The notes beneath the pieces are model-generated. The model was not told where the DNA came from and ran no database searches. It saw nothing but the letters and a program-made list of their open reading frames with translations. A DNA stretch of 64,000 nucleotides from contig JAZQTA010000009.1 of assembly GCA_045630385.1 (NCBI GenBank), positions 3,465 to 67,464 on the forward strand, read 5' to 3'. The position numbers were made by a program, and so were the translations under genes. Positions 2,124 through 22,753 of the stretch are shown in pieces (the first letter of the stretch is position 1; each line of letters starts with the position of its first letter). This DNA comes from Eubacteriales bacterium (GTDB lineage: Bacteria > Bacillota > Clostridia > Oscillospirales > CAG-272).

Positions 2124-5036
2124 ATGAAAAGATTTTTATTCTGTACATTGACCGTTGTACTGATGCTCTTCGTTCTTGCAAGCTGCTTCGGTACAGAAAG
2201 CCATCGGTACACTGCTGATTGCTCTACAATCTGCGCCGACTGTAACGTCAAGATGCGTGACCCGTTGGTTGCGCACACCTATGACAGCTGTGCCGACCTT
2301 GATTGTAACGTATGCGGCGAAGAGCGCGAAATAACCGAGCATGAATACGCCGGTGTCTGCGCAACGAAATGCTCCGTGTGCGGCGCTGAACGTACCAACG
2401 AAAACAATCACAATTACGACAGCCCCTGCGACATCGATTGTAACGTTTGTAAGGAACCCAACAAAAACGTTTCCGAGCACGTTTACCAGAACGATTGCGA
2501 CACCGACTGCGAGTTCTGCGGTGCACAGAGAGTCACCGAGCACAAGTACACCAATGATTGTGACAAGGACTGTAACGTTTGCTCCGCGCTTAGAATTCCC
2601 AAGGCTCACGTTTACACCTATCCCTGCTCCCTCACCTGTAACGTCTGCGGCGCGGAGAACCCCGCACCTGCGGCTTGCCAATACTCCCACGCTTGCGATG
2701 CTGACTGTAACCTTTGCGGCACGCTCAGAAATGCCGCGGCGCACGTTTACGATCATGCCTGCGATGAGGACTGTAACGTCTGCGGCGAGGTAAGATCTGT
2801 CAACGATCACACTTACGACAACAGCTGCGACGCCGATTGTAACGCTTGCGGCACTCTCCGCGAAGGCGTGCACGCATTCGGTGCTTGGAGAACCAAGACG
2901 CCCGCAAGCTGCACCTCCGCTGAGATCCTCGTAAGATACTGCGCAGATTGCGGCGCAGAGGAGACGATGGATGGAGCACCTGCTCTTGATCACATCTTCA
3001 CCAACGATTGTGACGTACAGTGCAACCGTTGCAGCTACAAGAGAGAGATCAAGCACTCCTATGATACCGATTTCTCCGTTTACGTTCCCGTATCTTGCAC
3101 GACCGCAGAGATCCTTGAAAGATTCTGCTCCGTGTGCGGAGCGAGAGAAACCCAGATCGGCAAGGCCGCTCTCGGACACACCTACACCAACACCTGCGAT
3201 ACCACCTGTAACCGCGAGGGATGCGATTACGTCAGAGTGATCACGCACACCTTCGGCGAATGGGAAACTAAGACCATCGAAAACTGCGTGGATGATGAGA
3301 TCGAGCATCGCATCTGCTCTGTCTGCGGCGTAGAAGAAACCAGAACCGGCACTGCTGCTCTCGGTCACACGCCTTTGGCTACCGATTGCGAGATCTGCTC
3401 CGTCTGCGGCGAAGCAAGCGGCTTTGAGCATGGCTTTAGTGAATGGGGAACAAAAAAACCTGAGGATTGTTACAACGATGAGATTGAAAATCGCATCTGT
3501 TCCGTCTGTGGCGACGAAGAGACCAGAATCGGAACTGCCGCTCACGGACACGTTTATGCGGATGATTGCGATGCTATCTGCGAGCATGGATGCGGCTTTG
3601 AGCGTATCCCTCCCCACGTTTATGACGGCATTGAGGATCTCGTATGTAACGAATGCGGCCACAACCGTGAATGCACCGGACATCTTCCCTACGTAAAAGA
3701 CTGCACCATCTGCCGTATTTGCGGCAAAGCAAGCGGCTACGAGCATAGCTTTGGCGAATGGGAAACCAAGACATCTGAAAACTGCACCGATGCAGAGATC
3801 GAGCATCGCATCTGCTCCGTCTGCGGCGTAGAAGAAACCAGAACCGGCACTGCCGCTCTCGGTCACACGCCTTTGGCTACCGATTGCGAGATCTGCTCCG
3901 TCTGCGGTCAGGCAAGCGGCTTTGAGCATAGCTTCGGCGCATGGGAAACCAAGACACCCGCAAGCTGCACCGAGGATGAGATCGAGCGTCAGATCTGCTC
4001 TATCTGCCGCAAGGAAGCAACCAGAGTCGGCGACAAAGAAGCATTTGGCCACAGCTACGACAACAATTGCGACACCACTTGTAACACCTGCGGAACGTCG
4101 AGAACCGTAGAGCACGATTTCGAGGGTGTTGCATGGACAGAAAAGACACCTGCAGATTGCTTCAAAGCACAGATCCTTGCAAGAAAGTGCCTTGAATGCG
4201 GCGCTGAAGAAACCAAGGAAGGCATCGGCGCTCTTGGTCATACGCCTCTTGCAACCAATTGCACTGTCTGCGCAAGATGCGGCCAGCCGTCCGAAATCGA
4301 CCATGAATTTGGCGATTGGGTAACCAAGTCCGCGGCTGATTGCTACAATGCAGAGATCCTTCACAAGGTTTGCGGCAAGTGCGGCATCGCAAGCACGGAA
4401 ACCCAGGAAGGCGAACCGGCTCTCACGCATACCTACACGGATGCATGCGATGCCATTTGCGACCTTTGTAACACTTTTGAGCGTATTCCTCCTCACGAAT
4501 ACGCAGACGAGCATGACGTAAGCTGTGAGCTTTGCGGTGATGTTCGTGCCTGCACCGGCCACAAAGCATTGGCTAACAACTGCCTTGTTTGTGAATACTG
4601 CGGACAGGCAATTCCCGGTGCGGAACACTCTTACGCTTTCATTTGCGATACGGACTGTGATGTATGCGGTGCCACAAGAGCTGCGTCTCACTCGCCTTCT
4701 GCAGCAGATTGTACCGTTTGCCAGTACTGCGACCAAACCATTCCCGGCGCGGCTCACGTAGCACTCGAAACAGATTGCACCGTTTGTGCAAACTGTAACG
4801 CAGGCACCGGAAAAGCACATGAAGCAGATCCTCACAACTGTGTTGTATGTCAGCACTGCGGTAAGGCAAGCGGCAAAACGCATACGCCTAACACGGCAGT
4901 AAACTGCACACAGTGCGAGACCTGTGGCAAGAGCCTTGGCACTTCGCACACGGATGCGAACTCCGATGGTCACTGCGACAAGTGCCCGATGGAAACGCTT
5001 CCCGGCGAAAACTGGTACCCCTGGGCACCCCTTTGA
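2124..5036 (+). CDS. Cys-rich repeat lipoprotein, function unknown (paralog 2)
   Basis: Signal peptide with lipobox MKRFLFCTLTVVLMLFVLASC. The mature N-terminus CFGTESHRY matches paralog 1 (CFGTESHTY). I count 110 Cys in 970 aa, arranged as about 36 triplets of three module types. No canonical SD seen upstream of ATG 2124. Confidence 0.85.
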   Translation: MKRFLFCTLTVVLMLFVLASCFGTESHRYTADCSTICADCNVKMRDPLVAHTYDSCADLDCNVCGEEREITEHEYAGVCATKCSVCGAERTNENNHNYDSPCDIDCNVCKEPNKNVSEHVYQNDCDTDCEFCGAQRVTEHKYTNDCDKDCNVCSALRIPKAHVYTYPCSLTCNVCGAENPAPAACQYSHACDADCNLCGTLRNAAAHVYDHACDEDCNVCGEVRSVNDHTYDNSCDADCNACGTLREGVHAFGAWRTKTPASCTSAEILVRYCADCGAEETMDGAPALDHIFTNDCDVQCNRCSYKREIKHSYDTDFSVYVPVSCTTAEILERFCSVCGARETQIGKAALGHTYTNTCDTTCNREGCDYVRVITHTFGEWETKTIENCVDDEIEHRICSVCGVEETRTGTAALGHTPLATDCEICSVCGEASGFEHGFSEWGTKKPEDCYNDEIENRICSVCGDEETRIGTAAHGHVYADDCDAICEHGCGFERIPPHVYDGIEDLVCNECGHNRECTGHLPYVKDCTICRICGKASGYEHSFGEWETKTSENCTDAEIEHRICSVCGVEETRTGTAALGHTPLATDCEICSVCGQASGFEHSFGAWETKTPASCTEDEIERQICSICRKEATRVGDKEAFGHSYDNNCDTTCNTCGTSRTVEHDFEGVAWTEKTPADCFKAQILARKCLECGAEETKEGIGALGHTPLATNCTVCARCGQPSEIDHEFGDWVTKSAADCYNAEILHKVCGKCGIASTETQEGEPALTHTYTDACDAICDLCNTFERIPPHEYADEHDVSCELCGDVRACTGHKALANNCLVCEYCGQAIPGAEHSYAFICDTDCDVCGATRAASHSPSAADCTVCQYCDQTIPGAAHVALETDCTVCANCNAGTGKAHEADPHNCVVCQHCGKASGKTHTPNTAVNCTQCETCGKSLGTSHTDANSDGHCDKCPMETLPGENWYPWAPL
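3258..3430 (+). repeat. intragenic duplication, copy 1
   Basis: About 173 bp matching 3756-3928. The 113-bp core (3297-3409 vs 3795-3907) differs at only 2 positions by my reading. Offset is 498 bp, or 166 codons. Confidence 0.8.
3756..3928 (+). repeat. intragenic duplication, copy 2
   Basis: See copy 1. Both encode FGEWETKT..ENC..(D/A)EIEHRICSVCGVEETRTGTAALGHTPLATDCEICSVCG.ASGFEH. Confidence 0.8.
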
Positions 5037-5063: not shown

Positions 5064-5097
5064 GAGCGACCTACCTTCGGGTGGGTCGCTCTTTTTT
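5064..5097 (+). terminator. rho-independent terminator after paralog 2
   Basis: 12-bp stem GAGCGACCTACC / GGTGGGTCGCTC (one G-U pair) with a TTCG loop, followed by TTTTTT (5092-5097). Confidence 0.85.
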
Positions 5098-5119
5098 CAT
5101 CGCCGCGCAACGCGCGGTG

Positions 5120-5280
5120 TATATCATCCGCGAAGCGGCATATCATCCGCGAAGTGGTATATCATCAGCCCTTGCGGCTGTATATCATCCGCGAAGCGGC
5201 ATATCATCCGCAAAGCGGTATATCATCCGCGAAGCGGTATATCATCCGCGAAGCAGTATATCATCACCCCTTCGGGGTTG
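5120..5280. repeat. 8-unit tandem array, 19-bp period: (T/C)ATATCATC plus a GC mini-hairpin
   Basis: Units start at 5120, 5139, 5158, 5181, 5200, 5219, 5238 and 5257. Consensus is TATATCATCCGCGAAGCGG (hairpin CCGC-GAA-GCGG). Units 3 and 8 keep TATATCATC but carry different hairpins (AGCC-cttgc-GGCT and ACCCC-ttc-GGGGT). Confidence 0.9.
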
Positions 5281-5417
5281 TATAAATGATAAGCCACGCA
5301 AAACATTCCCTCAGTCGCTTCGCGACAGCTCCCTTTACACAAGGGAGCCTTAAACACAAAAACATTTTGAACTGATTTTTATTCGCATTATCCTTATCGG
5401 CAATAGCCTATTTTGAA

Positions 5418-5444
5418 CCACGCGACTATCGCGTGGTTTTCGTT
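5418..5444 (+). terminator. orphan plus-strand intrinsic terminator with no CDS upstream
   Basis: CCACGCG-actat-CGCGTGG followed by TTTTCGTT. It lies about 140 nt downstream of the tandem array and about 320 nt beyond the previous terminator. Confidence 0.55.
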
Positions 5445-5452
5445 ATACAAGC

Positions 5453-5487
5453 AAAAAAGCGAGAGCCAAGATTTACTTGACTCTCGC
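5453..5487 (-). terminator. terminator of the transketolase operon
   Basis: On the minus strand: GCGAGAG-tcaagtaaatcttgg-CTCTCGC followed by TTTTTTGC. Confidence 0.65.
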
Positions 5488-5508
5488 CATAATTTTATTA
5501 TGTAAGAA

Positions 5509-6450
5509 TTACTTCTTTGCAATAGCTTCCTTTGCCTTTGCCGCGATGTTCTTCGCAGTCAGACCGTAGATCTCAAGAAGCTCGGGCACCTTACCGCTGC
5601 GGCCGTAAGCATCTTCAACGCCTACACGCTTTACAGGGCAAGGGAAGTTTTCGGAGAGTGCTTCGCAAACCGCACCGCCAAGACCGCCGATCACGCTGTG
5701 CTCCTCTGCAGTAACAACGGCGCCGGTCTTTCTTGCGGAACGCTCGATCAGCTCTGCATCCAGAGGCTTAATGGTGTGGATATTGATAACCTCGGCATCA
5801 ATTCCATCTTCTGCAAGCATTGCAGCGGCTTCCATTGCAAGGTGAACCATGAAACCGGTCGCAACGATAGTTACGTCCTTACCTTCCTTGTAAACAACGC
5901 CCTTGCCGATCTCGAAGCGGTAGCCCTCAAGCTCAGCAGAGAGATCCGGAACGGCAAAACGGCCGTAACGAAGATAAACAGGACCGTCAAAGAGCAGAGC
6001 GGCTTCCGTAGCGGCATAAGCCTCGGTAGCGTCTGCGGGGCAAATAACCGTCATGCCGGGGATAGTACGCATCAGAGCGAGGTCCTCGTTCGACTGGTGA
6101 GTTGCACCGTCCTCACCAACGGTGATGCCTGCGTGGGTTGCACCGATCTTTACGTTGAGGTGAGGATAACCAATGCTGTTGCGCACCTGCTCGTATGCAC
6201 GGCCGGATGCGAAAATCGCAAAGGTGGAAACAAAAGGAATCTTACCGGTGGTCGCAAGACCTGCGGCAACACTCATCATATTGCCTTCTGCGATACCGCA
6301 ATCAAAAAATCTTTCGGGGAACTTCTTCTTGAATACACCCGTCTTCGTTGCCGCTGCAAGGTCTGCATCCAAAACAACGAAATCATGCTTTTCACCGAGG
6401 GCTGCCAATGCGGCACCGTAGGCTTCTCTGGTTGCTTTCTTTTCTGCCAT
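5509..6450 (-). CDS. transketolase, C-terminal (pyrimidine-binding) subunit
   Basis: 313 aa. Motifs REAYG..L..LG, VLDADL, FFDCGIAEGNM and GATHQSNEDLALMR are typical of split transketolase subunit B. RBS AAGGAGGGAA. Confidence 0.93.
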   Translation of the reverse strand: MAEKKATREAYGAALAALGEKHDFVVLDADLAAATKTGVFKKKFPERFFDCGIAEGNMMSVAAGLATTGKIPFVSTFAIFASGRAYEQVRNSIGYPHLNVKIGATHAGITVGEDGATHQSNEDLALMRTIPGMTVICPADATEAYAATEAALLFDGPVYLRYGRFAVPDLSAELEGYRFEIGKGVVYKEGKDVTIVATGFMVHLAMEAAAMLAEDGIDAEVINIHTIKPLDAELIERSARKTGAVVTAEEHSVIGGLGGAVCEALSENFPCPVKRVGVEDAYGRSGKVPELLEIYGLTAKNIAAKAKEAIAKK

Positions 6451-6464
6451 GTCTACTTCCCTCC

Positions 6465-7304
6465 TTATTTCAACTCTGCATCGATTTTGTTAAGATCTTC
6501 TACGGCAACAAGGTACTGCTCTTCCTTGGGAGCCTGACCGTGCCACTCGCACTTATTCTCCATGTAGGAAACACCCTTACCCTTGATCGATTTTGCGATG
6601 ATCACGGTGGGCTTTCCCTTCACGGTCTTCGCCTCCGCGAAGGCGGCCTCGATCGCGTCAAGGTCATGCGCGTCGATCGAAATTACGTGCCAGCCGAATG
6701 CGCGGAACTTCTCGTCATGGGGCGTGGGATCCATAACCTCGGCGATAGGACCGTCAATCTGAAGACCATTCCAGTCGATCACCGCGCAAAGGTTATCAAG
6801 CTTATAGTGAGCGGCAAACATAGCCGCCTCCCAAACCTGTCCCTCTTCGCTCTCGCCGTCACCAAGGATGGAATATACGCGATACGCATCACCCGAGATC
6901 TTTGCGGAAAGCGCCATGCCGCAAGCGGCGGAAATACCGAGGCCGAGAGAACCGGTGGTCATATCCACACCGGGCGTACCCTTCATATCGGGATGTCCCT
7001 GCAGGCGAGATTCGGTCTTACGAAGCGTCTTCAGCTCCTCTACGGGGAAGAAGCCGCGATGTGCAAGAACAGAGTACAGCGCAGGAGCCGTGTGGCCCTT
7101 AGAAAGAACGAAACGATCGCGCTTAGGATCCTTAGGATTCTTGGGATCAACGTTCATCTCTTCAAAATAAAGATAGGTCAGAATATCCGCAATGGAAAGA
7201 GATCCACCGGGATGGCCGCAGCCGGCGTTATACACGCCGTCAATAATGCCGTGACGAACTGCATTGGCAGTTCTTTTCAAGGCAAGCTTACGAAGTTCTT
7301 CCAT
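6465..7304 (-). CDS. transketolase, N-terminal (TPP-binding) subunit
   Basis: 279 aa. Motifs GHPGGSLSIADILTYLYF, FVLSKGH, GSLGLGIS and LGDGESEEGQVWEA. Directly upstream of the C-terminal subunit. Confidence 0.93.
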   Translation of the reverse strand: MEELRKLALKRTANAVRHGIIDGVYNAGCGHPGGSLSIADILTYLYFEEMNVDPKNPKDPKRDRFVLSKGHTAPALYSVLAHRGFFPVEELKTLRKTESRLQGHPDMKGTPGVDMTTGSLGLGISAACGMALSAKISGDAYRVYSILGDGESEEGQVWEAAMFAAHYKLDNLCAVIDWNGLQIDGPIAEVMDPTPHDEKFRAFGWHVISIDAHDLDAIEAAFAEAKTVKGKPTVIIAKSIKGKGVSYMENKCEWHGQAPKEEQYLVAVEDLNKIDAELK

Positions 7305-7390: not shown

Positions 7391-8104
7391 TCAATATCTC
7401 TTGCGAGTCTTGGTCTGGAAGATGATACCGATAAGAGCGAGAACGCCAAGGAGAACAAAGCCAACAATAACAGGCTGATTCGCAAGGAAAGGAACAGAAC
7501 CGCAAATCTTATCAACGATCTGAATGCCATATTTAGGCTTATCAAGAACGGTAACAACTGCCCATGCACCAAAGATGGAAAGACCCCAGATTTCGAACCA
7601 CTTGCGAAGGATAATAGCAAGAAGAGCGATTACGCCACCTGCTGCAGCTGCAACGATGAGGTTGCCTGCGAAGGAAGAAAGCGCACCGATCGTGCCGGAA
7701 TACAGAAGCCATGCAGGGAAATAAGCAAATGCTGCGATGTAAAGAACCATGTAAAGGAACTTACGAAGAAGGATTGCAATCACGCCCACAACAATACCAA
7801 CGATCCATGCATACTCCGCAATGGCATCAACGGGGATCTTGGGAACAATGTAAGCTACGGTCACGCCGCAAGCGATGCAGAACATACCGAAGAACTTCTG
7901 CACGCCGAGAAGACGCTTACCAAACAAAAGTTCGATTGCACCGAGAGCGATCAGGATGTAAGCAGCGAAAGGATGGATCATCGAAACCATATCCCACAGC
8001 TTATCCCAAATGCCTGCTACCTTTTCGTTGAAAAAACCGTTATAGATCTTTTCATACACTCCTTCAATTTTGCTGAAATCAGCGCCAAGAATCTTATCTA
8101 TCAT
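7391..8104 (-). CDS. polytopic membrane protein, function unknown (possibly DUF4203/TM7S3-like)
   Basis: 237 aa with about 6-7 hydrophobic spans after a short cytoplasmic N-terminus. No catalytic motif recognised. Confidence 0.7.
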   Translation of the reverse strand: MIDKILGADFSKIEGVYEKIYNGFFNEKVAGIWDKLWDMVSMIHPFAAYILIALGAIELLFGKRLLGVQKFFGMFCIACGVTVAYIVPKIPVDAIAEYAWIVGIVVGVIAILLRKFLYMVLYIAAFAYFPAWLLYSGTIGALSSFAGNLIVAAAAGGVIALLAIILRKWFEIWGLSIFGAWAVVTVLDKPKYGIQIVDKICGSVPFLANQPVIVGFVLLGVLALIGIIFQTKTRKRY

Positions 8105-8318
8105 TAGACTCCTCTTTCTCGGTGCGCACCTCGCGCCCGTTATTGTATTTGTTTATATTTTATCACATAATATTCCAAAAGTCAAGAGTTTTTCCATATT
8201 TTTTTTACAAAACGCATATTTTTAATTTCTTACAAAATCAGTCTCGTGATAAGCACGCAGCACGGAACGATAGCAGAAAAACAAAACATTTTTTTATTCT
8301 TCTTCCGCATTATCACGC

Positions 8319-8361
8319 AAAAAAAGCGCTCGGCCGTTTTTTGGGTGTCGAGCGCTTTTTA
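8319..8361 (-). terminator. terminator of the amino-acid ABC transporter operon
   Basis: AGCGCTCG (8325-8332) / CGAGCGCT (8349-8356) with an A-run before and a T-run after, so it is structurally bidirectional. Confidence 0.65.
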
Positions 8362-8396
8362 AAATATGCGAAAAAGACAATATTTGTTTGCATTTA

Positions 8397-9188
8397 TCAA
8401 TCTTTTGCGTTTTTCAAGAACGCAATCGTCTTCGGAGATTTCGGATTTTCCAATACCTCTTCGGGCGTTCCGAATTCCTCGATCACGCCGTCGGCCATAA
8501 AAATGACCTTGTCGGATACGCCCTTGGCAAATCCGATCTCATGCGTTACGATCACCATCGTGCGATCCGAATTCTTCAGCTCGCGGATCACCTTCAGCAC
8601 CTCGCCCGTAAGCTCGGGGTCCAAGGCGGACGTCGGCTCGTCAAAGCAGAGGATCTTCGGAGAAAGCATCAGGGCTCTCGCAATCGCAACGCGCTGTTGC
8701 TGACCGCCCGAAAGCTGATACGGATAGGAATCTCTTTTTTCGGCAAGACCTGTGACGCGGAGAATCTCTTCTGCGCGCGCATCGATCTCGGCGAAAATCG
8801 CTTTTTTATTCTGCTTAAAATCCGCGCGCTCCTTGGCGTGCAGCCTCGGTGCAAGCGTGAGATTTCCGATCACGCTGTACTGCGGAAAAAGATTGAACTG
8901 CTGGAACACAAGCCCCATCATTCTCTGCGCTTCCTTGTCAACCTCGGGCAAGCCCTCGGCATCCATACCGAACACGCGATGTCCGTCGATCCATATTTCG
9001 CCTTCATCCGGCGTTTCAAGGAAGTTCATCGAGCGAAGCAACGTCGTTTTACCGCCGCCCGACGAGCCGATGATGGAGAGCACCTCCCCTTTTTCAAGCG
9101 TGAGGTCAATGCCCTTGAGCACTTCGTTATTGCCAAAACGCTTTTTCAAGCCTTTGATTTCAAAAAATGCCATACGCCACCTCAACAC
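8397..9188 (-). CDS. amino-acid ABC transporter ATP-binding protein (GlnQ-like)
   Basis: Walker A GSSGGGKTT, signature LSGGQQQRVAIARAL, Walker B ILCFDEPTSALD. The start could instead be ATG 9173 (MAFFEIKGL). Confidence 0.93.
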   Translation of the reverse strand: MLRWRMAFFEIKGLKKRFGNNEVLKGIDLTLEKGEVLSIIGSSGGGKTTLLRSMNFLETPDEGEIWIDGHRVFGMDAEGLPEVDKEAQRMMGLVFQQFNLFPQYSVIGNLTLAPRLHAKERADFKQNKKAIFAEIDARAEEILRVTGLAEKRDSYPYQLSGGQQQRVAIARALMLSPKILCFDEPTSALDPELTGEVLKVIRELKNSDRTMVIVTHEIGFAKGVSDKVIFMADGVIEEFGTPEEVLENPKSPKTIAFLKNAKD

Positions 9189-9838
9189 CTGATATAATCG
9201 AGCTTTTTCTCAATTTTGCTAAAGAGAACCGAAAGCAAGCCGTTAAAAATGAGATAGAAAACGCCCGCATAGAACAGCGGCCAAAGGATTACCTCGGCAT
9301 TTACGATCTGCTTTGCGATCGTGAATAGATCCACATGAACGATAACGCTCGCAAGCGCAGTATCCTTGACGAGAGTAATGATCTCGTTTGACATCGGCGG
9401 GATGACGCGCTTGACAACCTGAAGAAGAACTACATGTCGGAACACCTGCCACTTGGACATACCGAGAACCTGGCCGGCCTCATGCTGCCCCTTGGAAATA
9501 CTTTCGATGCCACCTCTGAATATTTCAGAAAAATAGCAAGCGTAATTGATGCAGAAGGCTACGCACACCATCAGCAGCTGCTCATTTATGGTACGAATAG
9601 GAATACCAAGCCAAAGTCCGGGGCCAAGCGCGAATATTATAATCTGAAGCATCAGCGGCGTGCCTCTAATAACCCACACAAAGCCCTTGGTTAAATAACT
9701 CAAGGGCTTGAATTTGGACATCGAACCAAAGGCGACAAGCAACCCCAGAGGGATTGCTGTCGCCAATGTCGCGCCAAATATTAGCAAAGTATAGACAAAG
9801 CCGTCTAAAAGTTCAGCAGTAATTTGCCAAAAAGTCAT
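9182..9838 (-). CDS. amino-acid ABC transporter permease (His/Glu/Gln/Arg/opine family)
   Basis: 218 aa with about 5 TM spans and an EAA-like loop (SKGQHEAGQVLGMSKWQVFRHVVLLQ). Lies between the SBP and ATPase genes. Confidence 0.9.
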   Translation of the reverse strand: MTFWQITAELLDGFVYTLLIFGATLATAIPLGLLVAFGSMSKFKPLSYLTKGFVWVIRGTPLMLQIIIFALGPGLWLGIPIRTINEQLLMVCVAFCINYACYFSEIFRGGIESISKGQHEAGQVLGMSKWQVFRHVVLLQVVKRVIPPMSNEIITLVKDTALASVIVHVDLFTIAKQIVNAEVILWPLFYAGVFYLIFNGLLSVLFSKIEKKLDYIRC

Positions 9839-9840
9839 TC

Positions 9841-10701
9841 TTATTCAGCCTCAGTCTCTACAACTACGCAGCTCATACCGGCAGAGCCGTCCTCTGCACC
9901 GATCAGAGCATCCTTCATATCTGCAGTGGTCTTGTAAAGATCCTTGTCTGCCTGACGGATGATCGCAACCTGCTTGTTGTTCATGTAAGGAATGGTGATT
10001 TCCATTGCTGCCTGGCGCTCTTCGGTAATGGTCATGCCGTTCCAGATGCAGTCAATGGTCTTTGCATCAAGCTTTGCTTCCTTGGTTGCCCATTCGATAA
10101 TCTGGAACTCAACCGCAACGCCAAGCTTCTCAGCGACCTTCTTCGCAAGCTCGATATCAAAGCCGATCAGCACACCGTTCTCCTCGTAAGCAATAGGAGC
10201 AAAGAGCGTGTAGCCTACAATAAATTTGCCCTGACCTACAATGTAATCCCAGTCAGCCTGCTCGGAAGCGGTGAGCTCAGCAACCGTTGCGTTCTTATCG
10301 ATGCAAACCTCGGATTTAACACCGTACTTGTCAGCAATCGTGTCAACCGTTCCATCCTTCGCAAGCTCGATGAGAGCAGCGTTAATCTTCTTTGCCAAAC
10401 CGCTTCCCTTACGGGCTGCAATACCGTACTGCTCGGTAGCAAGAACAAGATTCTCAACGATCATAAGAGAATTCGCATAGGTGGTATCCTTGCTCATATA
10501 ATAGCCGGCCATAACGCTATCCATAACACCGACATCAATAGACTTAGCATTGAGCTGGAGAAGAACGTCCATTTGGCTGTTTACAGGGGAGAAGTCCTTT
10601 CCGAATTTGGTTTCATACTTCGAGCCGCCGCAAGAAGTGAATGCGAGGCACGCGGAGCAAAGCATTGCTACGCAAAGAACGAGGGTGATGATCTTTTTCA
10701 T
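9841..10701 (-). CDS. amino-acid ABC transporter substrate-binding lipoprotein (SBP family 3)
   Basis: Lipobox MKKIITLVLCVAMLCSACLAFTSCGG. Two-lobed SBP_bac_3-like sequence (GVMDSVMAGYY, DCIWNGMTITEER). Confidence 0.85.
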   Translation of the reverse strand: MKKIITLVLCVAMLCSACLAFTSCGGSKYETKFGKDFSPVNSQMDVLLQLNAKSIDVGVMDSVMAGYYMSKDTTYANSLMIVENLVLATEQYGIAARKGSGLAKKINAALIELAKDGTVDTIADKYGVKSEVCIDKNATVAELTASEQADWDYIVGQGKFIVGYTLFAPIAYEENGVLIGFDIELAKKVAEKLGVAVEFQIIEWATKEAKLDAKTIDCIWNGMTITEERQAAMEITIPYMNNKQVAIIRQADKDLYKTTADMKDALIGAEDGSAGMSCVVVETEAE

Positions 10702-10890
10702 TTTAAAAAATCTCCTTTAGTGTTTTATCACTTTAATTTGTTAAAGCGTTATCATTATACCGCATTCTTCGCGGTTTGTCAATACTTTTTCGAGAGAAAT
10801 TTTATTTTTTATAAAAAAAAGAAGAAAACGCGCTCTGCGGTCACAAGTAAAGCTCACGCAAGGCACGTTCCTATATATAGATAAATGAAG

Positions 10891-11361
10891 TTAAACCGCT
10901 CCGTAAAGGTTATAGATCGGAATTCCCTTTTGCGCGGCGAAGCGCTTGGTTTGCGCAGAGCCTCCGTTCTGGCGGCAAACGTAGCAGATCAGCATATCCG
11001 CGCGATCGATCAGGGCGCGGTTGCGCCGTTCCATGCATCCGCGCTCGTATTCCTCGGAAAGCACGATCGACTCGTCTGCCTCAGATAATACGTAGTTATA
11101 AGCGGCGCGCTGCATCGGCGTCCATTTTGCGGTTTGATTGGCGCAAGGAAGCATGAGGACGAGGCGCACGTCCGGATGGCTGACGCGAAAAAGGATCACC
11201 GCCTTGGCGGCATAGGTATCAAAGCCGATCGCTCCGCCGGTATAAAAGGTGCGGCAGCCCTGCTCGTACGCATAACGGATGGCACGCGCAAGAAGATCTC
11301 TGATCGCCGCCCCGCTTGAAGGCGGAATGGCGCGATGGCCGCTGAAGGCACAGCTTTCCAC
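10891..11361 (-). CDS. SLOG-fold DUF1273 (YpsA-like) protein
   Basis: 156 aa. N-terminal C-x-F-S-G-H-R motif, then GC..FYTGGAIGFD and a C-terminal RNRALIDRADMLICYV pattern typical of DUF1273. Confidence 0.65.
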   Translation of the reverse strand: MESCAFSGHRAIPPSSGAAIRDLLARAIRYAYEQGCRTFYTGGAIGFDTYAAKAVILFRVSHPDVRLVLMLPCANQTAKWTPMQRAAYNYVLSEADESIVLSEEYERGCMERRNRALIDRADMLICYVCRQNGGSAQTKRFAAQKGIPIYNLYGAV

Positions 11362-11450
11362 GGTCTCTCTCCTCTCAAAAATACTTTTTATTGCAAAAGA
11401 GCGGCTGCCGCAAAAGCGCGGCAGCCAAAACGGATTTCGTATGTAAGAGA

Positions 11451-12806
11451 TCAGGCTTCGAGATCCTCCGCATCGCGATCCTGCTTGCGGTCTTCCTTCT
11501 TTTCCTTTGCTCTCTCTTCCTTTTCGTTCTTCTCTTCCTCGGGCGGCGTTACCACCACGGTCAGGCGCTCGACCACGTTTTCGCCCATTTCGGTGACGAT
11601 GACGTAAAGACTCTTATAGCTGAAGCTATCGCCCTCGTGCACGTCCTCCTCAAGCATTTCAACGGCCCAGCCGCCCATCGTGGTATACTCGCTCTCAAAT
11701 TCGCGATCCTTGAAATCGATCTCGTCAAAAAATTCCTCAATATTGGTCTGACCAAGGACGGAATACGTGTTTTCCGCCGTTTTCTCGATCTCAAGCTCGA
11801 TAATATCGCTCTCGTCCCAGATATCGCCGACGATCTCCTCGAGGATATCCTCCATCGTGACGATTCCGAGCGTGCCGCCGTATTCATCCAGCACCACGAT
11901 CATGTGCACCTTCATCTCACGCATCTTCTCCATGGCATCGGGAAGCTTCGTGGTTTTATGCACGTAGCAGGTCTCTCGGACGTAATCCGCGGGACTTACG
12001 TTTGCAACGCCAAGCTCGGCAACCGCCTTCAAAAACGGCGCGATATAGAATACGCCCTCAATATGGTCGAGAGAATCCTTGTAGTAGGGGAATCTGGAGT
12101 ATCTCGCGGTCATGACCTCGGACAGAATGATCTCGGGGGCATCCTCGCAGTCGATACCCTGCACGTCGATACGGGGCGTGAGGATCTGCTCCACGGTGAT
12201 ATCCGAAAATTCCAGCGCAGACTGCAAAAGCTCTCCGCTATCCTCGTCGATAACGCCCTCCTCCTCGACCGTTTCAATGATCGTGGCAAGCTCTTCCTCC
12301 GTGACGAGGGGCTTATCCTCCTCATCCTCCTTTTTCCAGAGGCGGGAAACCGCGCGGACAAACGCCATGACGAGCGCGGTCAAGGGATAAAAGATCACCA
12401 TGAGCGTACGAAGCGCGTACGAGGTAACGCATGCATACGGCAGAGCGAGGCTCTTGCCGAGAAGCTTCGGGATGATCTCGCCGAAAATCAAAAGCACAAC
12501 CGTGGAAACCAAGGTGGAAACCACGCCGACGATCGCTTCGTTTTCTTCTCCGAGCAGGTTCAAGGTAATGATCGTGGACAGCGAGGAAAGCACGATGTTC
12601 ACAACGTTATTACCGATCAGGATCGTCGTTAACGCCTCGGGATAACGCGTCTCGATCTTTTCCGCAACGCGCGCGCCCTTATTTCCATCCTCCGCCAATT
12701 TCTGCAGGCGCATACGGTTGAGAGAAGAGAGCGCGATCTCCACGGAGGAGAAGAATGCTGAGAAAACGATCAGCACAGCGCAGGCAATCAAATACTTCGT
12801 TATCAT
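11451..12806 (-). CDS. CNNM/hemolysin-family protein (DUF21-CBS pair-CorC_HlyC)
   Basis: 451 aa. N-terminal 4-TM DUF21 (FFSSVEIALSSLN), a CBS pair and a CorC C-terminal domain, plus an acidic/Lys-rich tail. Confidence 0.88.
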   Translation of the reverse strand: MITKYLIACAVLIVFSAFFSSVEIALSSLNRMRLQKLAEDGNKGARVAEKIETRYPEALTTILIGNNVVNIVLSSLSTIITLNLLGEENEAIVGVVSTLVSTVVLLIFGEIIPKLLGKSLALPYACVTSYALRTLMVIFYPLTALVMAFVRAVSRLWKKEDEEDKPLVTEEELATIIETVEEEGVIDEDSGELLQSALEFSDITVEQILTPRIDVQGIDCEDAPEIILSEVMTARYSRFPYYKDSLDHIEGVFYIAPFLKAVAELGVANVSPADYVRETCYVHKTTKLPDAMEKMREMKVHMIVVLDEYGGTLGIVTMEDILEEIVGDIWDESDIIELEIEKTAENTYSVLGQTNIEEFFDEIDFKDREFESEYTTMGGWAVEMLEEDVHEGDSFSYKSLYVIVTEMGENVVERLTVVVTPPEEEKNEKEERAKEKKEDRKQDRDAEDLEA

Positions 12807-14203
12807 TTTTCCACCTCCTCATCGGTTGCGGACGCATCATCCGCCGCATCCTCTTCGGGCAGGTCGATCTCGGGATCGGCCAGCTTCACGGTGGCATACA
12901 GAACGCGGTTCTGCTCAATTTCATCAATCTCCACCGTCAGATCACCGACGGTAAAGCTATCCTCCTCCTCGGGAAGGCGGCCGAGCCTTTCGAGGATCCA
13001 GGTGCTGACGGGCTTATGCGGCGCAGTTCCCTGCGGAACGGCAAGGCCGATGCGGGTATACATTTCGCTGAGCGAAAGGCGGCCGCAAACGCGGAAATAG
13101 TTTCCGCCGAGCTTCACGAAATCATCGTCCACCACATCCTGCTCATCGTAGATCTCTCCGACGATCTCCTCGATGAAGTCTTCAATGGTAACGATACCGA
13201 TGATCGAGGTGCCCGCGCGGTCATGCACAAGTGCCATAGACTGGCGCTTGCCGCTCATCTCTTCCTTCAAATCATCAATGGAAGCATCTAAGGTTGTAAA
13301 GTACGGTTTACGAATCAGCCGAGAAACGCGAACGTTTCTATCGGCGATATAGGCCTTCAAGTAGTCGTTTACGATCAAGATTCCGATGCATTTATCCAGA
13401 CTGCCGCGGCATACGGGAAGACGAGAAAACTTCGTATGCTTAACGATATCGAAGATCGCCTCTCGCGGAAGCGAGATATCGAGCCACTGCACGTCAGCCT
13501 TCACGGTCAGAATATCCGCAACGCGGGTCTTCGAAAACTCCAATGCGGACTGCAAAAGCTCGCTCTGCTCCTCGTCCAAAACACCGTCCTCCTCCGAGGT
13601 TTCGATGATGGTGGAAAGCTCCTCCTCCGTCACCGTCGGCTCTTCCTTCACGACGACGATCTTATTCAAGAGCTTGGAAATTCCAAGGAAAATGATCGTG
13701 ATCGGATAAAGAACGTATTTGATGCCGCGAAGCGAGGGAGCGGCGGACATCGCCCAGCGCTCGGGCATATCCTTTGCGAAGTTTTTCGGAACGGTTTCCG
13801 CGAAGATAAACACCACGACCGTGGTGATTGCCGTGGCAACGGTGGTCACAACGCTTTCCGCTACGGAAACGCCGCGCTCGCGAAGAGCAACGAAAACGTG
13901 CCCCGAAAAAATGGTGGCAACCGCGGCGGCGCCGCAGTTCACAAGATTATTGCCCACCAGAAGCGTCGTCAGATACAGGTCATACTTCTCGCGAATCTTC
14001 AGCGCGAGGTCTGCCCTGCGGTTCTCTTCTTCTTTATAGCTCAAAAGCTTGATCTTGCTCACCGAAGAAAAAGCCATTTCGGTGGCGGAAAAATAGGCGC
14101 TTGCTATCAAAAGCAAAACGTACACGGCGATAAGTAGCCAACTACTCGGGTCCATGGAAAAAAAACCACACTCCTCTGTTTTGATATAAGGTGTATAGAG
14201 CAC
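12803..14203 (-). CDS. CNNM/hemolysin-family protein (DUF21-CBS pair-CorC_HlyC), tandem paralog
   Basis: Same architecture (YFSATEMAFSSVS...). 4-bp overlap with the downstream paralog. The start is uncertain: GTG 14203 or ATG 14155 (MDPSSW), and neither has a well-spaced SD. Confidence 0.85.
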   Translation of the reverse strand: MLYTPYIKTEECGFFSMDPSSWLLIAVYVLLLIASAYFSATEMAFSSVSKIKLLSYKEEENRRADLALKIREKYDLYLTTLLVGNNLVNCGAAAVATIFSGHVFVALRERGVSVAESVVTTVATAITTVVVFIFAETVPKNFAKDMPERWAMSAAPSLRGIKYVLYPITIIFLGISKLLNKIVVVKEEPTVTEEELSTIIETSEEDGVLDEEQSELLQSALEFSKTRVADILTVKADVQWLDISLPREAIFDIVKHTKFSRLPVCRGSLDKCIGILIVNDYLKAYIADRNVRVSRLIRKPYFTTLDASIDDLKEEMSGKRQSMALVHDRAGTSIIGIVTIEDFIEEIVGEIYDEQDVVDDDFVKLGGNYFRVCGRLSLSEMYTRIGLAVPQGTAPHKPVSTWILERLGRLPEEEDSFTVGDLTVEIDEIEQNRVLYATVKLADPEIDLPEEDAADDASATDEEVEK

Positions 14204-14270
14204 ACCAATTATATATTATATAGTATATAAGGAAAAAAGTCAAGAGGTGGCGTGTTTTTCCTTCCTTTAT

Positions 14271-15818
14271 TTATAGATTTTCGGTCAAAAATCGGCATTT
14301 TCGGCCTTTGCCCACGCTTTTGCGCGCAAAAAGCGCATCGGAAATCACAGAAAAAAGCGTACTGCACGCAACGAAGGAGCAGACAAAGAAGAGGATCTTC
14401 AACAGCATCCACGGCAGAGTGGTCACCGTTCCGTTCATCGAAAACAGGCGACGCGAGGCAAACGCGGAAAGCGCGGCGCTGATCAAGGGCGGCGCTGACG
14501 CCGTGAGAATAGGAATGCGGAATCGGATCGAGCGGCGCAGGCGGCGAAGCGAAAGAAGAAAATTATAAAGCTCCATCACGATGATCATCACGGCGTATCC
14601 CCATACCCCAAGCACCGGAAGAAGAAACCAAACGAGCAGAACCGAAAGAAGCGAATCGGTGATATTGATCCACATGGAAGCCACCTGCTCACCGATGCCC
14701 TTCAGCATCTGATCGGTCACGTGATCCAGATACATGATCGGAACGACCGGCGCGAGCATGGCAATATAGCGCCCCGCCTCCGCGCTGTGATAAAAAAGAT
14801 TTCCGAGCTCCTCTGAAAACAGCAGGAGAAGCGCCGCCGTGGCGATCCCGTAGCGAAGCGCCGCAAGAAAGGATTTTTGGCACATGCGCTCCATGCGCGC
14901 ACCGTCGCCATTCGCCTTCGCCTCCGCAAATTCCGGTACCAAAAGGCTCGCAAAGGAGGTCAGAAGCGCCATAGGATACAAAACGAGCGGCAGAGCCATG
15001 CCGTGCAGAATGCCGTAGGATGCGAGCGAATCCGACGCGCTCTGCCCGTAAAGGCGCAGGCGCTTGGGGATCAGAATATGCTCGGCGGTGAGAAGCGCCG
15101 AGCGCAGATAGGCAGATACCGCCAGCGGCAACGCCACGCGGCACACGGGAAGAAACGCTTCCCCCCCGTCCCCCTTTTCTTTTTTGCGGCGCGACAAAAG
15201 GAATTGAAGCCAAGCAAGCGCGAACGCGAAAAGATCGGTCAGCACCGCCGTTACGGCGAGAATGATGCATGAGGCGGCAATATTTTCATGATCGGCGCGC
15301 GACAGCAAAACGACCGTGAGCAGAAGCCGAAGCAGCTGCGAGCCGACTTGCACGCCCGCATTGTTTGCTACGCGGCGGATGCCGACGAAATAACCGATGA
15401 ACACGGAAAGAAGCGCTTCCGGGAGAAGCGAAAGCGCAAGAATGCGAAGCGGAAGCACGGTGCGCGCATCCGCGAGAAAATACGCGCCGAAGAAGGGCGC
15501 GAATAAAAACAGCACCGCCGAGGAAACGCCGCCGAAAAGCAACGCGTACAGCGTTCCCGCGCGCAAAACCGAGCCGACGGCGCGATCCCCCTTGCCGAGC
15601 GCGGCGGCCACAAGATTCGTCATCGCAAGGGAAACGCCCGAGGTGGCAAAGGTCAAGGCAAAGCCGTAGACCGTCATGATCAGCGTGTAAAGCCCCACCC
15701 CCTCTGCGCCGACCGCCCCCGAGACGAACGAGGATGCGAAAAGTCCCACGCCGCGCATCGAAAGTGCCACCAGCGTCAGCAGTATTCCGTTTTTAAAAAA
15801 TCTCTTCTTGTCGCTCAT
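14271..15818 (-). CDS. MOP-superfamily flippase (SpoVB/MurJ-like polysaccharide biosynthesis protein)
   Basis: The ORF track extends to 15953, but I prefer ATG 15818 (MSDKKRFFKNGILLTL...). About 14 TM spans. The N-terminal pattern G..LL....L..R..G..... G.EG.GLY resembles SpoVB/YtgP. Confidence 0.75.
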   Translation of the reverse strand: MSDKKRFFKNGILLTLVALSMRGVGLFASSFVSGAVGAEGVGLYTLIMTVYGFALTFATSGVSLAMTNLVAAALGKGDRAVGSVLRAGTLYALLFGGVSSAVLFLFAPFFGAYFLADARTVLPLRILALSLLPEALLSVFIGYFVGIRRVANNAGVQVGSQLLRLLLTVVLLSRADHENIAASCIILAVTAVLTDLFAFALAWLQFLLSRRKKEKGDGGEAFLPVCRVALPLAVSAYLRSALLTAEHILIPKRLRLYGQSASDSLASYGILHGMALPLVLYPMALLTSFASLLVPEFAEAKANGDGARMERMCQKSFLAALRYGIATAALLLLFSEELGNLFYHSAEAGRYIAMLAPVVPIMYLDHVTDQMLKGIGEQVASMWINITDSLLSVLLVWFLLPVLGVWGYAVMIIVMELYNFLLSLRRLRRSIRFRIPILTASAPPLISAALSAFASRRLFSMNGTVTTLPWMLLKILFFVCSFVACSTLFSVISDALFARKSVGKGRKCRFLTENL

Positions 15819-16019
15819 TTCCGTTTTCTCGGCAAATGCCTTCCCTTTCCTATTGCTTATCTTTTTTATTTTATGAAAGCCTCGGCTTGTCTTATGAAAA
15901 CGAAAATATTTTCTAACAAAGCAAACAAAAAGCGAGAACAAACGCACCGCCAAATCTCAATATTTTTTCTCGAAAATAACGTTATATGAAAACAATTATT
16001 TTCTTTTTTGCAAAATGCC

Positions 16020-16052
16020 AAAAAAGAGGCCGCGAACAAAAGCCGCGGCCTC
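16020..16052 (-). terminator. terminator of the surface-protein operon
   Basis: GAGGCCGCG (16026-16034) / CGCGGCCTC (16044-16052). On the minus strand the hairpin is followed by TTTTTT (A-run 16020-16025). Confidence 0.75.
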
Positions 16053-16071
16053 CAAAAAACTATTCTATTTT

Positions 16072-21207: not shown

Positions 21208-21245
21208 CTTTTTTCTCCTTTTATTTCAAAAATAAAATCATGAGA

Positions 21246-22565
21246 TTATTCAACGACAAAAACAAAACCGTTGATTACTTCAAACGCAATGGGCTCGAAA
21301 TCCTCGTCATATACCTCATCAATATACATGCCCAGTCGGATTTCCAATACGTCTCCAACCTCGAGCGTTTGCGGAATTTCAAAGTGCAACGTAGCAAACG
21401 TACCGTTTTCACTAACCTCAACAAGCGGGCTGATACATGTCAGCGGTTGCGGATTATTATACGGTGTCGGCGCAGTCACATACACGCCAAATGAAGAATC
21501 AAATACTACGTTCTGCAAGGTCAGACTTTCATCATATAAAACATCGAATTTTAAAGATGCAATACCCGGATTGTTGAAGAGCGAAATCACGACTTCAACG
21601 TCACCATCCCCAACCTTTGCAAATGCATCCTCTACCACAATCGCGGGACCGGCAATATCTCTTTCATATTGCGCAAATATTTCAACATCCTCTGTAATCC
21701 TATCATACGCCTTATCCCAACCAACAAATCGGAAGCCTTGTCTCGTCGGATTCGAAGGAGGGGTAGCGCTCTGCCCTGATTCAACCGTTTCGGTTTTTAT
21801 CACCGTACCGTCAAAATCTTTAAAAAGCACCACATACGTGCTTGGCGAGGCGTTGGCGCGATAAACCGCGGTCACCGTCTGATTCGCTACAATATTAATA
21901 TACGATCCATCCCAACCAACGAATTCATATCCCGCTCTGCTCGGTGCTTGAGGGGGCGTTGCATCGCCGCCTTGATCAACCAGCTGTGTTTTCAAAACCG
22001 TTCCATCGTAATCCTTGAAGGTGACGGTATACTGTACCACTTCGACAGAATTCGCTTCAAACTGCGCTTGATACGTGACGTCAGAGAGCACGGGGGCAAT
22101 TTGCGGCGTCCAACCGATAAAGGTGTATCCTGCTTTTACAGGAGTGACACCGTTGTATGTAGGTGTTGTTCCCTTGGGCACCTTCAAATCGGTTTCGAGC
22201 ACGGTATCTCCGTTTTTCCAAATAACCGTATATTCTTCGGGTGCTATATACGTAACGGCGTTGCTCCAATCACTGTTCGTGTAATTCACTCCGTCACCGA
22301 TGGCGCGAATCTTAAAAGTTTGGCCGTTCGTCAGTTTCCTGCTCGTCGTGGTGTTTTCCACGGAGAGAATCTCGCCATCAATGCTAATTTCAAATTTGTT
22401 CGCGACCGTATTCGCGCCCCACGATGCTGTGTCTCCCGAAAGAGTCACCCATGGAGCAGAAAGCTTCGTCGGTACTGTATTTCCGCCGCCACCGCATGCA
22501 ACAAGGCTCAAAATACAGGCAAAAAGAAGCCCGAATGCGAATATACGCAATACTTTCTGTTTCAT
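21246..22565 (-). CDS. lipoprotein with Listeria-Bacteroides repeats and a C-terminal cohesin-like module
   Basis: 439 aa. Lipobox ...ILSLVAC(24)GGGG. Three or four Flg_new-type repeats (GYTFIGW, GYEFVGW, GFRFVGW). C-terminal aa ~307-439 are paralogous to the N-terminal module of the giant protein (NNPGIASLKFDVLYDESLTLQNVVF..FG.YV.A...YNNP). RBS AGGAGGAAC. Confidence 0.88.
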   Translation of the reverse strand: MKQKVLRIFAFGLLFACILSLVACGGGGNTVPTKLSAPWVTLSGDTASWGANTVANKFEISIDGEILSVENTTTSRKLTNGQTFKIRAIGDGVNYTNSDWSNAVTYIAPEEYTVIWKNGDTVLETDLKVPKGTTPTYNGVTPVKAGYTFIGWTPQIAPVLSDVTYQAQFEANSVEVVQYTVTFKDYDGTVLKTQLVDQGGDATPPQAPSRAGYEFVGWDGSYINIVANQTVTAVYRANASPSTYVVLFKDFDGTVIKTETVESGQSATPPSNPTRQGFRFVGWDKAYDRITEDVEIFAQYERDIAGPAIVVEDAFAKVGDGDVEVVISLFNNPGIASLKFDVLYDESLTLQNVVFDSSFGVYVTAPTPYNNPQPLTCISPLVEVSENGTFATLHFEIPQTLEVGDVLEIRLGMYIDEVYDEDFEPIAFEVINGFVFVVE

Positions 22566-22595
22566 CCTTTGTTCCTCCTGAAAATGTTTACTATA

Positions 22596-22622
22596 TACGC
22601 CTATTACTATAATAGATGTACA
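22596..22622. repeat. inverted repeat, left arm (27 bp)
   Basis: TACGCCTATTACTATAATAGATGTACA. It is the exact reverse complement of 22754-22780. Confidence 0.95.
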
Positions 22623-22634
22623 AACGATGAACTT

Positions 22635-22662: not shown

Positions 22663-22753
22663 GCGCTTTTTTTAGAAAAATACATTTTTTCTTTTTATTT
22701 TTGTGAAATAAGACAAACTTTCTGTTAATAATTTATTAGTGTTGTACAAGAGA

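Follow-up and report, generated by a model that had tools for sequence, protein, structure and literature searches.

The stretch of Eubacteriales DNA analyzed here (64,000 nucleotides [nt] of contig JAZQTA010000009.1, assembly GCA_045630385.1; referred to as the window, or the 64-kb window, with all coordinates given as window positions) contains a tandem array of short hairpins joined by a constant linker. The question raised by this locus is whether the array is the source of a small RNA (sRNA) or a structure that acts as DNA. An earlier note on the sequence had reported eight units located behind a strong terminator in a gap between convergent genes and had proposed, among other readings, a noncoding transcript of ~330 nt bounded by two terminators. 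Sequence and repeat statistics confirmed the eight-unit array, and the gap was found to measure 472 bp between stop codons at 5036 (plus strand) and 5509 (minus strand). As developed below, the array is one member of a dispersed family of extragenic hairpins found in gut Oscillospirales, and our tentative answer, held with somewhat less than even confidence, is that it acts at the DNA level.

The array extends from 5101 to 5284 on the plus strand. Its start lies on the T-run of the intrinsic terminator of the upstream lipoprotein gene (stem 5064-5091, 12 bp with 8 GC pairs; T-run TTTTTT, 5092-5097; plus strand). The terminator leads directly into TTTTTTCATC, a degenerate linker preceding a starter hairpin, hp0' (5101-5119, CGCCGCGC-AAC-GCGCGGTG), which is followed by the first full linker. 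This beginning, consisting of a T-run, ATC(C), and a hairpin, recurs in other members of the family. The eight units (5120-5279, plus strand) each combine a fixed 9-base linker, (T/C)ATATCATC, with a C:G-closed mini-hairpin. They start at 5120, 5139, 5158, 5181, 5200, 5219, 5238, and 5257, and ATATCATC is found at 5121, 5140, 5159, 5182, 5201, 5220, 5239, and 5258. Hairpins 1, 2, and 4 to 7 are of the form C-CGC-(G/A)AA-G(C/T)(G/A)-G, i.e., variants of CCGC-GAA/AAA-GCGG including one G.T and one C.A mismatch, hairpin 3 is C-AGCC-CTTGC-GGCT-G, and hairpin 8 is ACCCC-TTC-GGGGT. The array ends with a terminal partial linker, GTATA (5280-5284, plus strand); an ending composed of a hairpin and G(T/C)AT(A) is common to the arrays of the family and is the same at loci L183, L216, L222, L224, and L225.

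Tandem Repeats Finder reported a repeat at 5119-5265 with a period of 19 and 7.5 copies, in addition to a 61-nt super-period. The 9-mer TATATCATC occurs six times in the 64 kb, every copy being located in the array, against a chance expectation of 0.32 (none of 100 shuffled sequences reached six), and an 18-mer with up to three mismatches occurs six times versus 0.21 expected. Thermodynamic folds of the array gave z-scores of -1.9 to -3.5 for either strand and either molecule (DNA or RNA); these values did not discriminate between the possibilities because the near-identical units cross-pair. The open reading frames (ORFs) predicted across the array are spurious and no Rep-like gene is nearby, the neighbors being lipoprotein and transketolase genes, as the earlier note had stated in both respects. 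A search of the window for tRNA genes returned none, and an Rfam scan of the window at curated thresholds gave no match.

The array is not restricted to this genome. A scan of one genome per species, using three linkers spaced by 9 to 18 nt as the query, identified at least 120 loci in about 110 metagenome-assembled genomes, nearly all of them from Clostridia of the ruminant gut or of the gut of other herbivores (Acutalibacteraceae, Oscillospiraceae, "Eubacteriales," Ruminococcus, and bins labeled Christensenella). All figures given below for the arrays, units, loops, and addresses of the family rest on these listed loci, which numbered at least 120. The constant part of the family is the linker GYATATCATC, followed by a palindrome that varies in sequence and length. 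The 136 arrays parsed displayed two architectures. One-orientation arrays of 4 to 13 units, as in the window, frequently contain multiunit super-repeats. Much more common is a 3+3 module composed of three units, a center, and three inverted units. Copies were present on different contigs in four assemblies, and in four bovine metagenomes the summed DNA depth of the module was about one-third to one-fifth of that of a tRNA gene. The family consists of multicopy, dispersed extragenic palindromes at the 3' ends of genes. The earlier note had held that scattering of the unit as a generic REP-like repeat would speak against its reading, and essentially this was observed, the family being dispersed over many loci and genomes.

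One copy was carried by a phage. A five-unit array in three IMG/VR contigs of the same phage lies between a RusA-like gene and terS, just behind a terminator and with the genes for the small and large terminase subunits following immediately (L008, 8610-8760; also L050 and L112). This position is where a pac or cos site is usually found. The viral three-linker scan returned mostly unrelated coding repeats, and L008, L050, and L112 alone were genuine.

The covariation of the hairpins was analyzed in an alignment of 42 full 3+3 modules by RNAalifold and shuffle tests (n = 500). The seven local hairpins of the module were paired in 91% of the cells, compared to 74% in the shuffles and 30 to 42% when the partners were slid. 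Both sides had changed in 30 of the 46 hairpin pairs, a value reached by none of the 500 shuffles, and RNAalifold detected 19 compensatory pairs. Thus, the proposal that the potential to form hairpins is kept while their sequence changes was borne out. The listed loci comprised 367 units with 204 distinct palindrome sequences. Among the 197 distinct hairpins scored for perfection, 163 (83%) were perfect, and mismatches on the ATATCATC strand were G.T in 19 cases and A.C in 4 (P of ~0.001 by a one-sided binomial estimate). The loops were strongly polarized: on the ATATCATC strand, the triloops GAA, GCA, and GTA outnumbered their complements (94 GAA versus 1 TTC, 44 GCA versus 1 TGC, and 18 GTA versus 1), and the tetraloops GCAA, GTAA, and GTCA were found 17, 12, and 14 times, respectively, versus none in each case. 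In both arms, the loops read cGNAg or cGNNAg on this strand. Triloops were present in 102 and tetraloops in 47 of the distinct hairpins; a C:G pair closed 54 of 60 GNA triloops, and GNYA and GNRA tetraloops were about equally frequent (17 and 22, respectively). Loop polarity is a property of the unit and not of the locus, since the two arms of a module place the ATATCATC strand on opposite DNA strands. These results indicate that selection acts on the hairpin structure of one strand.

A second level of pairing was detected within the module. The center is complementary over 10 bp to the starter hairpin hp0, including the hp0 loop, with 96.7% of the positions paired and double changes in 6 of 10 pairs, which none of the 500 shuffles reached. 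This pairing could form a closing stem around the terminator-proximal arm or, equally, an inverted-repeat pair at the DNA level. RNAalifold also proposed a ladder between the arms, in which ATATCATC would pair with GATGATAT to form 10-bp helices and four-way junctions. We rejected this structure: the position-specific variants of the linker fail to covary, full complementarity was seen in only 44 of 126 rungs, and C.A and A.G clashes were conserved (GCATATCATC opposite GATGATATAC and ATATC opposite GAGAT).

The family occupies a defined genomic address. At least 47 mixed-orientation clusters follow a tRNA or transfer-messenger RNA (tmRNA) gene, at a distance from its 3' end of up to ~120 nt and typically of 52 to 64 nt; the tRNAs represent at least 15 anticodons. 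On the tRNA strand, the tRNA-CCA is followed by an A-tract, a stem, and a T-tract forming a bidirectional terminator, by ATCC-hp0-GG, by three ATATCATC units, by the center, by three GATGATAT units, and finally by a hairpin and TGATT. The hp0 hairpin of these tRNA-side modules (CCATTGCGAAAGCAATGG) corresponds to the starter hairpin hp0' of the window. At orthologous tRNA-Arg(CCG) loci of different species, the 3+3 layout was kept with compensatory changes. The promoter of the next gene often uses the TTGATT of the module as its -35 box (TTGATT-17 nt-TATAAT). Around the listed arrays, we detected no conserved flanking protein and no synteny, except for a gene of ~115 codons at 12 of 120 loci (L186, L208, L229, L231 to L233, L239, L281, and L301, among others). 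This gene encodes a four-helix-bundle protein, which we take to resemble the 23S rRNA-intervening-sequence protein, and lies ~80 nt from a 3+3 array; the -35 box of its promoter is the module-terminal TTGATT.

At three loci, the tRNA was apparently 220 to 540 nt away from the module. A duplicated tRNA 3' end was present directly before the terminator in each of them, and an insert has later come between the tRNA and the module. These inserts of 190 to 520 bp, which separate the tRNA from the terminator and its module (L200, 4740-4975; L189, 4937-5450; L234, about 620-830), are bordered by 12- to 17-nt direct repeats of the tRNA 3' end and look like scars or miniatures of tRNA-targeting integrative elements. 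The arrays are on the chromosomal side of the tRNA integration scars. One-orientation arrays are also found at gene ends, where they face the neighboring gene either way. Among 15 one-orientation arrays, the one at 5120-5279 of the window included, the ATATCATC strand is locally C-rich (negative GC skew) in 12, and the whole 64-kb window has a negative skew on the plus strand. The skew was not used as a proxy for replication because the control failed (8-kb skew; the sense strand of tRNA genes was positive in 19 cases and negative in 15).

The only named relative of the element is Gut-1 (RF01706), which was identified in human gut metagenomes in 2010 and rated a certain RNA by its discoverers, with no function proposed (PMC2864571). 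A full-text literature search for "Gut-1 RNA" and "Gut-1 motif" returned no paper. In a permissive Rfam scan, the minus strand of the window matched the Gut-1 model at 5215-5288 (34.2 bits; E = 6e-5) and 5116-5190 (24.2 bits), below the gathering score of 50, which none of 19 family loci reached. The Rfam comparison advised in the earlier note was thus empty at the curated thresholds and informative below them. Gut-1 and the window family share tandem short hairpins (at least three in Gut-1, eight in the window), covarying stems, a conserved AU-rich linker, and an origin from gut Clostridia metagenomes. The Gut-1 seeds are also located behind a tRNA, or behind a stop codon and a terminator. 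They have two arms of opposite polarity, with a center complementary to the first hairpin, and carry GAA or GCAA loops on the strand opposite to that assigned by Rfam, as in the window family. The two elements differ in their linkers, which are GUGAAAU or GUGAUAU in Gut-1 (reverse complements AUUUCAC and AUAUCAC) and GAUGAUAUAC in the window family (reverse complement GYAUAUCAUC), with just a UGAUAU core shared with part of the seed. They also differ in the order of the arms: the seeds contain hairpins separated by GUGAUAU or GUGAAAU, then the center, then ATATCAC units, i.e., reverse (R) then forward (F) in the two seeds examined, versus F then R in the window family. Finally, the hosts of the window family are bacteria of the ruminant gut, and the window copy is a one-orientation array of eight units behind a protein-coding gene. 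The window element is thus a sister branch of Gut-1 that would act as Gut-1 does, however that may be, but falls below the cutoff for curated membership. The match provides a name and not a mechanism, since Gut-1 has no known function.

How the array might act was considered in light of the known behavior of mini-hairpins. The motifs GCGNAGC and GCGNNAGC, whatever the base N, form extraordinarily stable hairpins in DNA but much weaker ones in RNA. They are poorly bound by single-stranded DNA-binding protein (SSB), and their known uses in nature are single-stranded DNA (ssDNA) signals, namely, the primase site of phage G4, ssiA of RSF1010, and the hairpin promoters of the phage N4 virion RNA polymerase (PMC13037366). 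The effect of a C:G closing pair on such hairpins is also documented (PMC3201870), and the connection to the GCGAAGC mini-hairpin drawn in the earlier note was apt. Like the G4, ssiA, and N4 signals, the hairpins of the window family have C:G-closed GNA or GNNA loops and stems of 3 to 7 bp and are strand specific. Those signals are single origin or promoter sites of phages and plasmids used by a known enzyme, whereas the window family forms chromosomal arrays of 3 to 13 units.

On this basis, we tentatively favor, slightly short of an even chance, the view that the array is an extragenic array of ssDNA hairpins similar to repetitive extragenic palindromes (REPs) and bacterial interspersed mosaic elements (BIMEs) and that it acts as DNA rather than as a discrete sRNA. 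For action at the DNA level in the broader sense, including a selfish-repeat variant, the chances are about even. The DNA reading is favored because the loops fit the rules of DNA mini-hairpins, with their dependence on the C:G closing pair, because one and the same module makes use of both DNA strands, and because the polarity is independent of neighboring transcription, one-orientation arrays facing either way. In the proposed mechanism, each unit would consist of an 8-nt single-stranded linker (YATATCAT) and a short C:G-closed hairpin with a GNA or GNNA loop. The hairpins would fold when the ATATCATC strand becomes single stranded, for instance under supercoiling, while the DNA is being replicated, or within R-loops and transcription bubbles. 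The linker and its hairpin together may then be recognized, presumably by a protein of the host or of a mobile element; a reader of specific stem sequences is excluded because the hairpins differ between units. The elements would persist in a "safe" strip just beyond intrinsic terminators, and the arrays would lengthen or shorten by slippage or unequal exchange between identical linkers, as the 61-nt three-unit super-repeat suggests for the window array. Candidate roles are an insulator of topology or termination, an SSB-excluding site for priming or restart, and a selfish repeat mobilized by an HUH enzyme.

Several observations weigh against this view. A tblastn search with the IS200 transposase TnpA found no RAYT-type (Y1/HUH) gene next to any of the 120 listed arrays, which leaves mobilization of the REP/RAYT type unsupported and constitutes the chief gap in the comparison with REPs. 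No protein that binds the hairpins was found, folding of the DNA in vivo is only predicted, and the hairpin sequences differ between units, unlike those of REPs. Conservation of the 3+3 layout at the tRNA-Arg(CCG) loci fits a host function but is neutral with respect to DNA versus RNA. The excess of G.T mismatches and the GNRA loops are compatible with RNA as well, a covarying 10-bp long-range pairing would be natural for an RNA domain, and Gut-1 was considered a certain RNA when it was discovered (PMC2864571). In addition, the RNA evidence consists of unstranded metatranscriptome contigs with crude depth and is weak.

The main rival is an RNA-level element, in keeping with the curation of Gut-1 as an sRNA, which would be transcribed as terminator read-through, a 3' trailer, or an sRNA; we consider this possible but rather unlikely. 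Such an RNA might block 3' exonucleases, serve as a backup or bidirectional termination insulator or as a processing platform, or act as a sponge via its AUAUCAU linkers. The strong covariation of the hairpins and the covarying closing stem that encloses the terminator-proximal arm speak for it, but the arrays are located behind efficient-looking bidirectional terminators and have no conserved promoter; no conserved -35 and -10 boxes were found upstream of the family arrays, where -10-like boxes belong to divergent neighboring genes, and an independent sRNA gene was rejected on these grounds. Just behind the terminator, the first arm has the sense orientation in the window and in the tRNA-side modules, and in an F-then-R module either arm is sense for transcription arriving from its side. 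However, the distal arm is often turned toward the promoter of a codirectional downstream gene, so that its folding strand would not be transcribed, the arm order is reversed in the Gut-1 seeds, and one-orientation arrays face genes either way, so that polarity does not follow transcription. The excess of G.U wobbles on one strand and the 22 GNRA loops also agree with an RNA, whereas the predominance of triloops (102) over tetraloops (47) and the similar numbers of GNYA and GNRA loops are unlike stable RNA loops (PMC13037366). Metatranscriptome contigs do carry the element, although the ratio of element to tRNA depth was ~1:3 to 1:5 in four metagenomes (DNA) and ranged from 1:3 to 1:300 among four metatranscriptomes (unstranded contigs). 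RNA libraries thus gave no higher ratio than DNA libraries, and there was no RNA enrichment. For the window array itself, no RNA contig provided coverage, at an uninformative depth (runs of ~4x). A sponge of the CsrB/RsmZ type, one of the suggestions of the earlier note, was not supported: GGA loops of the CsrA type were found in merely 11 of the 367 units, no promoter is conserved, and the supposed 3' terminator is an IS200-type end (see below).

A selfish micro-repeat devoid of host function, in which a trans-acting ssDNA enzyme (Y1/HUH, RAYT-like) would copy single hairpin-plus-linker units, or an entire 3+3 module along with its terminator, to new sites close to terminators, appears improbable. 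The family is dispersed and nonsyntenic, one copy is in a phage, the elements start with ...ATC and end with GYAT... as if inserted at a short target, and the same communities contain IS200-family ends in very high abundance, one of them being located 120 nt from the window array. Position-specific hairpins (AATTCCGCAGGAATT and AAAACGAAGTTTT) recur beside different tRNAs in different genomes with similar terminators. The lack of a Y1 transposase gene near the 120 listed arrays, already mentioned, argues against such copying, as do the differences between the hairpins of successive units, because of which there is no single template. No pair of empty and filled sites was found. Decay would be expected of dead copies, whereas 83% of the hairpins show perfect pairing and orthologous loci retain the 3+3 layout. 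We give still less credence, and in fact very little, to binding sites for a protein acting on double-stranded DNA (iterons, parC/tubC centromere-like repeats, or arm-type integrase sites) and to a neutral minisatellite produced by slippage. Direct repeats of 19 to 25 bp with a constant 10-mer, an inverted 3+3 layout recalling arm-type sites around a core, and the slippage apparent from the window super-repeat would suit such explanations; the sequences beside tRNA and tmRNA genes are hot spots of integration, with scars bordered by tRNA 3'-end repeats, but the arrays are on the chromosomal side of these scars and no conserved rep, par, or integrase gene is nearby. The iteron reading of the earlier note, which would call for 17- to 22-bp direct repeats next to a Rep initiator gene, an AT-rich region, or DnaA boxes, failed in the same manner, with no Rep gene among the window neighbors and no conserved neighbor at the listed family loci. 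A double-stranded DNA binder would need neither palindromes, nor compensatory changes, nor strand-specific loops, and a neutral minisatellite would not retain hairpins across about 110 genomes.

Returning to ssDNA hairpins, the preferred reading, the closest precedents are the REPs and BIMEs of enterobacteria and Pseudomonas. These are likewise short, multicopy extragenic palindromes at the 3' ends of genes, often of alternating orientation, in which a hairpin and a short conserved flank would be read as ssDNA. Their proposed roles include protection of mRNA ends, termination, and gyrase binding. REPs conserve the palindrome itself, with a GTAG-type flank, whereas the window family conserves the linker and varies the palindromes. 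The window family also looks like several copies per genome rather than hundreds, and the link to tRNA and tmRNA terminators and the fixed 3+3 layout are features of the window family and not of REPs. The pneumococcal BOX elements are modular and intergenic, with end modules and variable internal units, and can fold into long structures. The window family is similarly modular, intergenic, variable in unit number, and capable of such folding but has no sequence relation to BOX elements, whose units are conserved and longer (~45 to 60 nt) and have no terminator or tRNA anchoring. Two other types of array were discarded. A type III toxin-antitoxin (ToxI-like) array, which directly precedes an endoribonuclease toxin gene, does not fit a site between convergent gene ends with no downstream ORF on either strand, and in a CRISPR array the repeats have at least 23 nt and the spacers are unique and not palindromic, whereas only 9 to 10 nt are constant here and the 10- to 17-nt "spacers" are palindromes.

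The remainder of the gap is occupied by sequences that do not belong to the array. The earlier note had correctly described hairpins at 5314-5326, 5328-5348, and 5418-5444, but these belong to other repeat families. The first two are part of a dispersed two-hairpin repeat (5300-5349, plus strand) of the form (CAAT)CCCTCAGTC-variable hairpin-GACAGCTCCCTTTACACAAGGGAGCC, also written CAATCCCTCAGTC-variable hairpin-GACAGCTCCCTTTACACAAGGGAGCC, an exact 24-mer of which was present in 63 IMG/VR contigs (L120 to L182). In the bovine metagenome X3, the word depth of this segment was 7,400 to 24,000, versus ~7 for the flanks. Copies of the CAATCCCTCAGTC...GACAGCTCCCTTTACACAAGGGAGCC repeat often occur as inverted pairs ~70 nt apart, resembling miniature inverted-repeat transposable elements (MITEs), and also in intergenic regions of phages; an Rfam search with the 5300-5349 repeat gave no match. 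The third hairpin, AACCACGCG-ATAGT-CGCGTGGTT, is part of an IS200-type left-end remnant (5385-5452, minus strand) that lacks a transposase gene. This segment aligned, on the minus strand, directly upstream of an IS200 Y1 tnpA pseudogene of the Subdoligranulum plasmid OY725880 (L303, 2440-2560), and its depth in X3 was 13,775, versus ~7 for the flanks. Like the Subdoligranulum copy, it lies right behind a terminator T-run (junction TTTTTGCT/TGTATAACGAAAACCAC). Contig joints linking 5351 to 5411, 5415, or 5427 suggest that the remnant and the 5300-5349 repeat are joined elsewhere in a small composite element. The array itself is not an IS200/IS605-derived MITE (palindrome-associated transposable element [PATE]), since only the neighboring segment at 5385-5452 (minus strand) matched an IS200 left end and the array did not.

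These assignments bear on the ~330-nt transcript. The hairpin at 5418-5444, taken in the earlier note for an orphan plus-strand terminator, is an IS200-type left-end hairpin read on the minus strand, and the idea of a 330-nt sRNA fails because its second terminator is this remnant. The separate repeat at 5300-5349, the lack of a conserved promoter, the lack of RNA enrichment, and the apparent absence of 5147-5452 from a related strain, as judged from one low-depth contig, also spoke against it.

The plus-strand neighbor of the array is an ORF of 970 codons for a Cys-rich lipoprotein (2124-5036), which matched no family in a Pfam search. This lipoprotein-like product is composed of dozens of Cys-rich CxxC...C modules, and the ORF contains a 183-bp internal tandem repeat (3729-4072). 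On the minus strand, the neighbor is a split transketolase operon (genes at 5509-6450 and 6465-7304) with a predicted intrinsic terminator at 5458-5488. In a related strain present in X3, a single low-depth contig, whose alignment to the array spans 26 nt, joined 5146 to 5453, which suggests that the array of that strain directly abuts the A-tract of the transketolase terminator and that 5147-5452 is extra in the window strain. The same locus was sought in relatives, but no exact transketolase product was on record, and scans of the Joint Genome Institute (JGI) metagenomes found neither a match to the two-unit pattern nor a relative of the lipoprotein C terminus.

The window array is therefore not a lone case but a new branch of a known, uncharacterized motif family. 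This family is a very abundant noncoding element of herbivore gut Clostridia that has barely been described, only its human gut sister Gut-1 having been named (in 2010). Our analysis provides testable features that are absent from the Rfam entry, namely, the anchoring to bidirectional terminators of tRNA and tmRNA operons, the fixed 3+3 dyad, the covarying closing stem, and a loop polarity obeying the rules of hyperstable DNA hairpins and not those of RNA hairpins. For annotation, the spurious ORFs to which such arrays give rise should not be called, and the Rfam Gut-1 model misses the ATATCATC branch. A wider proposal, which we regard as rather doubtful, is that Gut-1-type elements, including the ATATCATC branch, are strand-specific ssDNA signals rather than sRNAs, built as SSB-resistant cGNAg/cGNNAg arrays. 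The dyad module at the ends of tRNA and tmRNA operons and of some other genes might then be read by a dedicated protein, with primosome assembly or priming for restart where replication and transcription have collided, topoisomerase recruitment, and action of an HUH enzyme as candidate roles, and the strand assignment of Gut-1 in Rfam would be reversed. If the element acts at the RNA level, it would be an unusual terminator-distal module. Action at the DNA level would make it a rare example, among Firmicutes, of an ssDNA signal that is chromosomal and encoded by structure.

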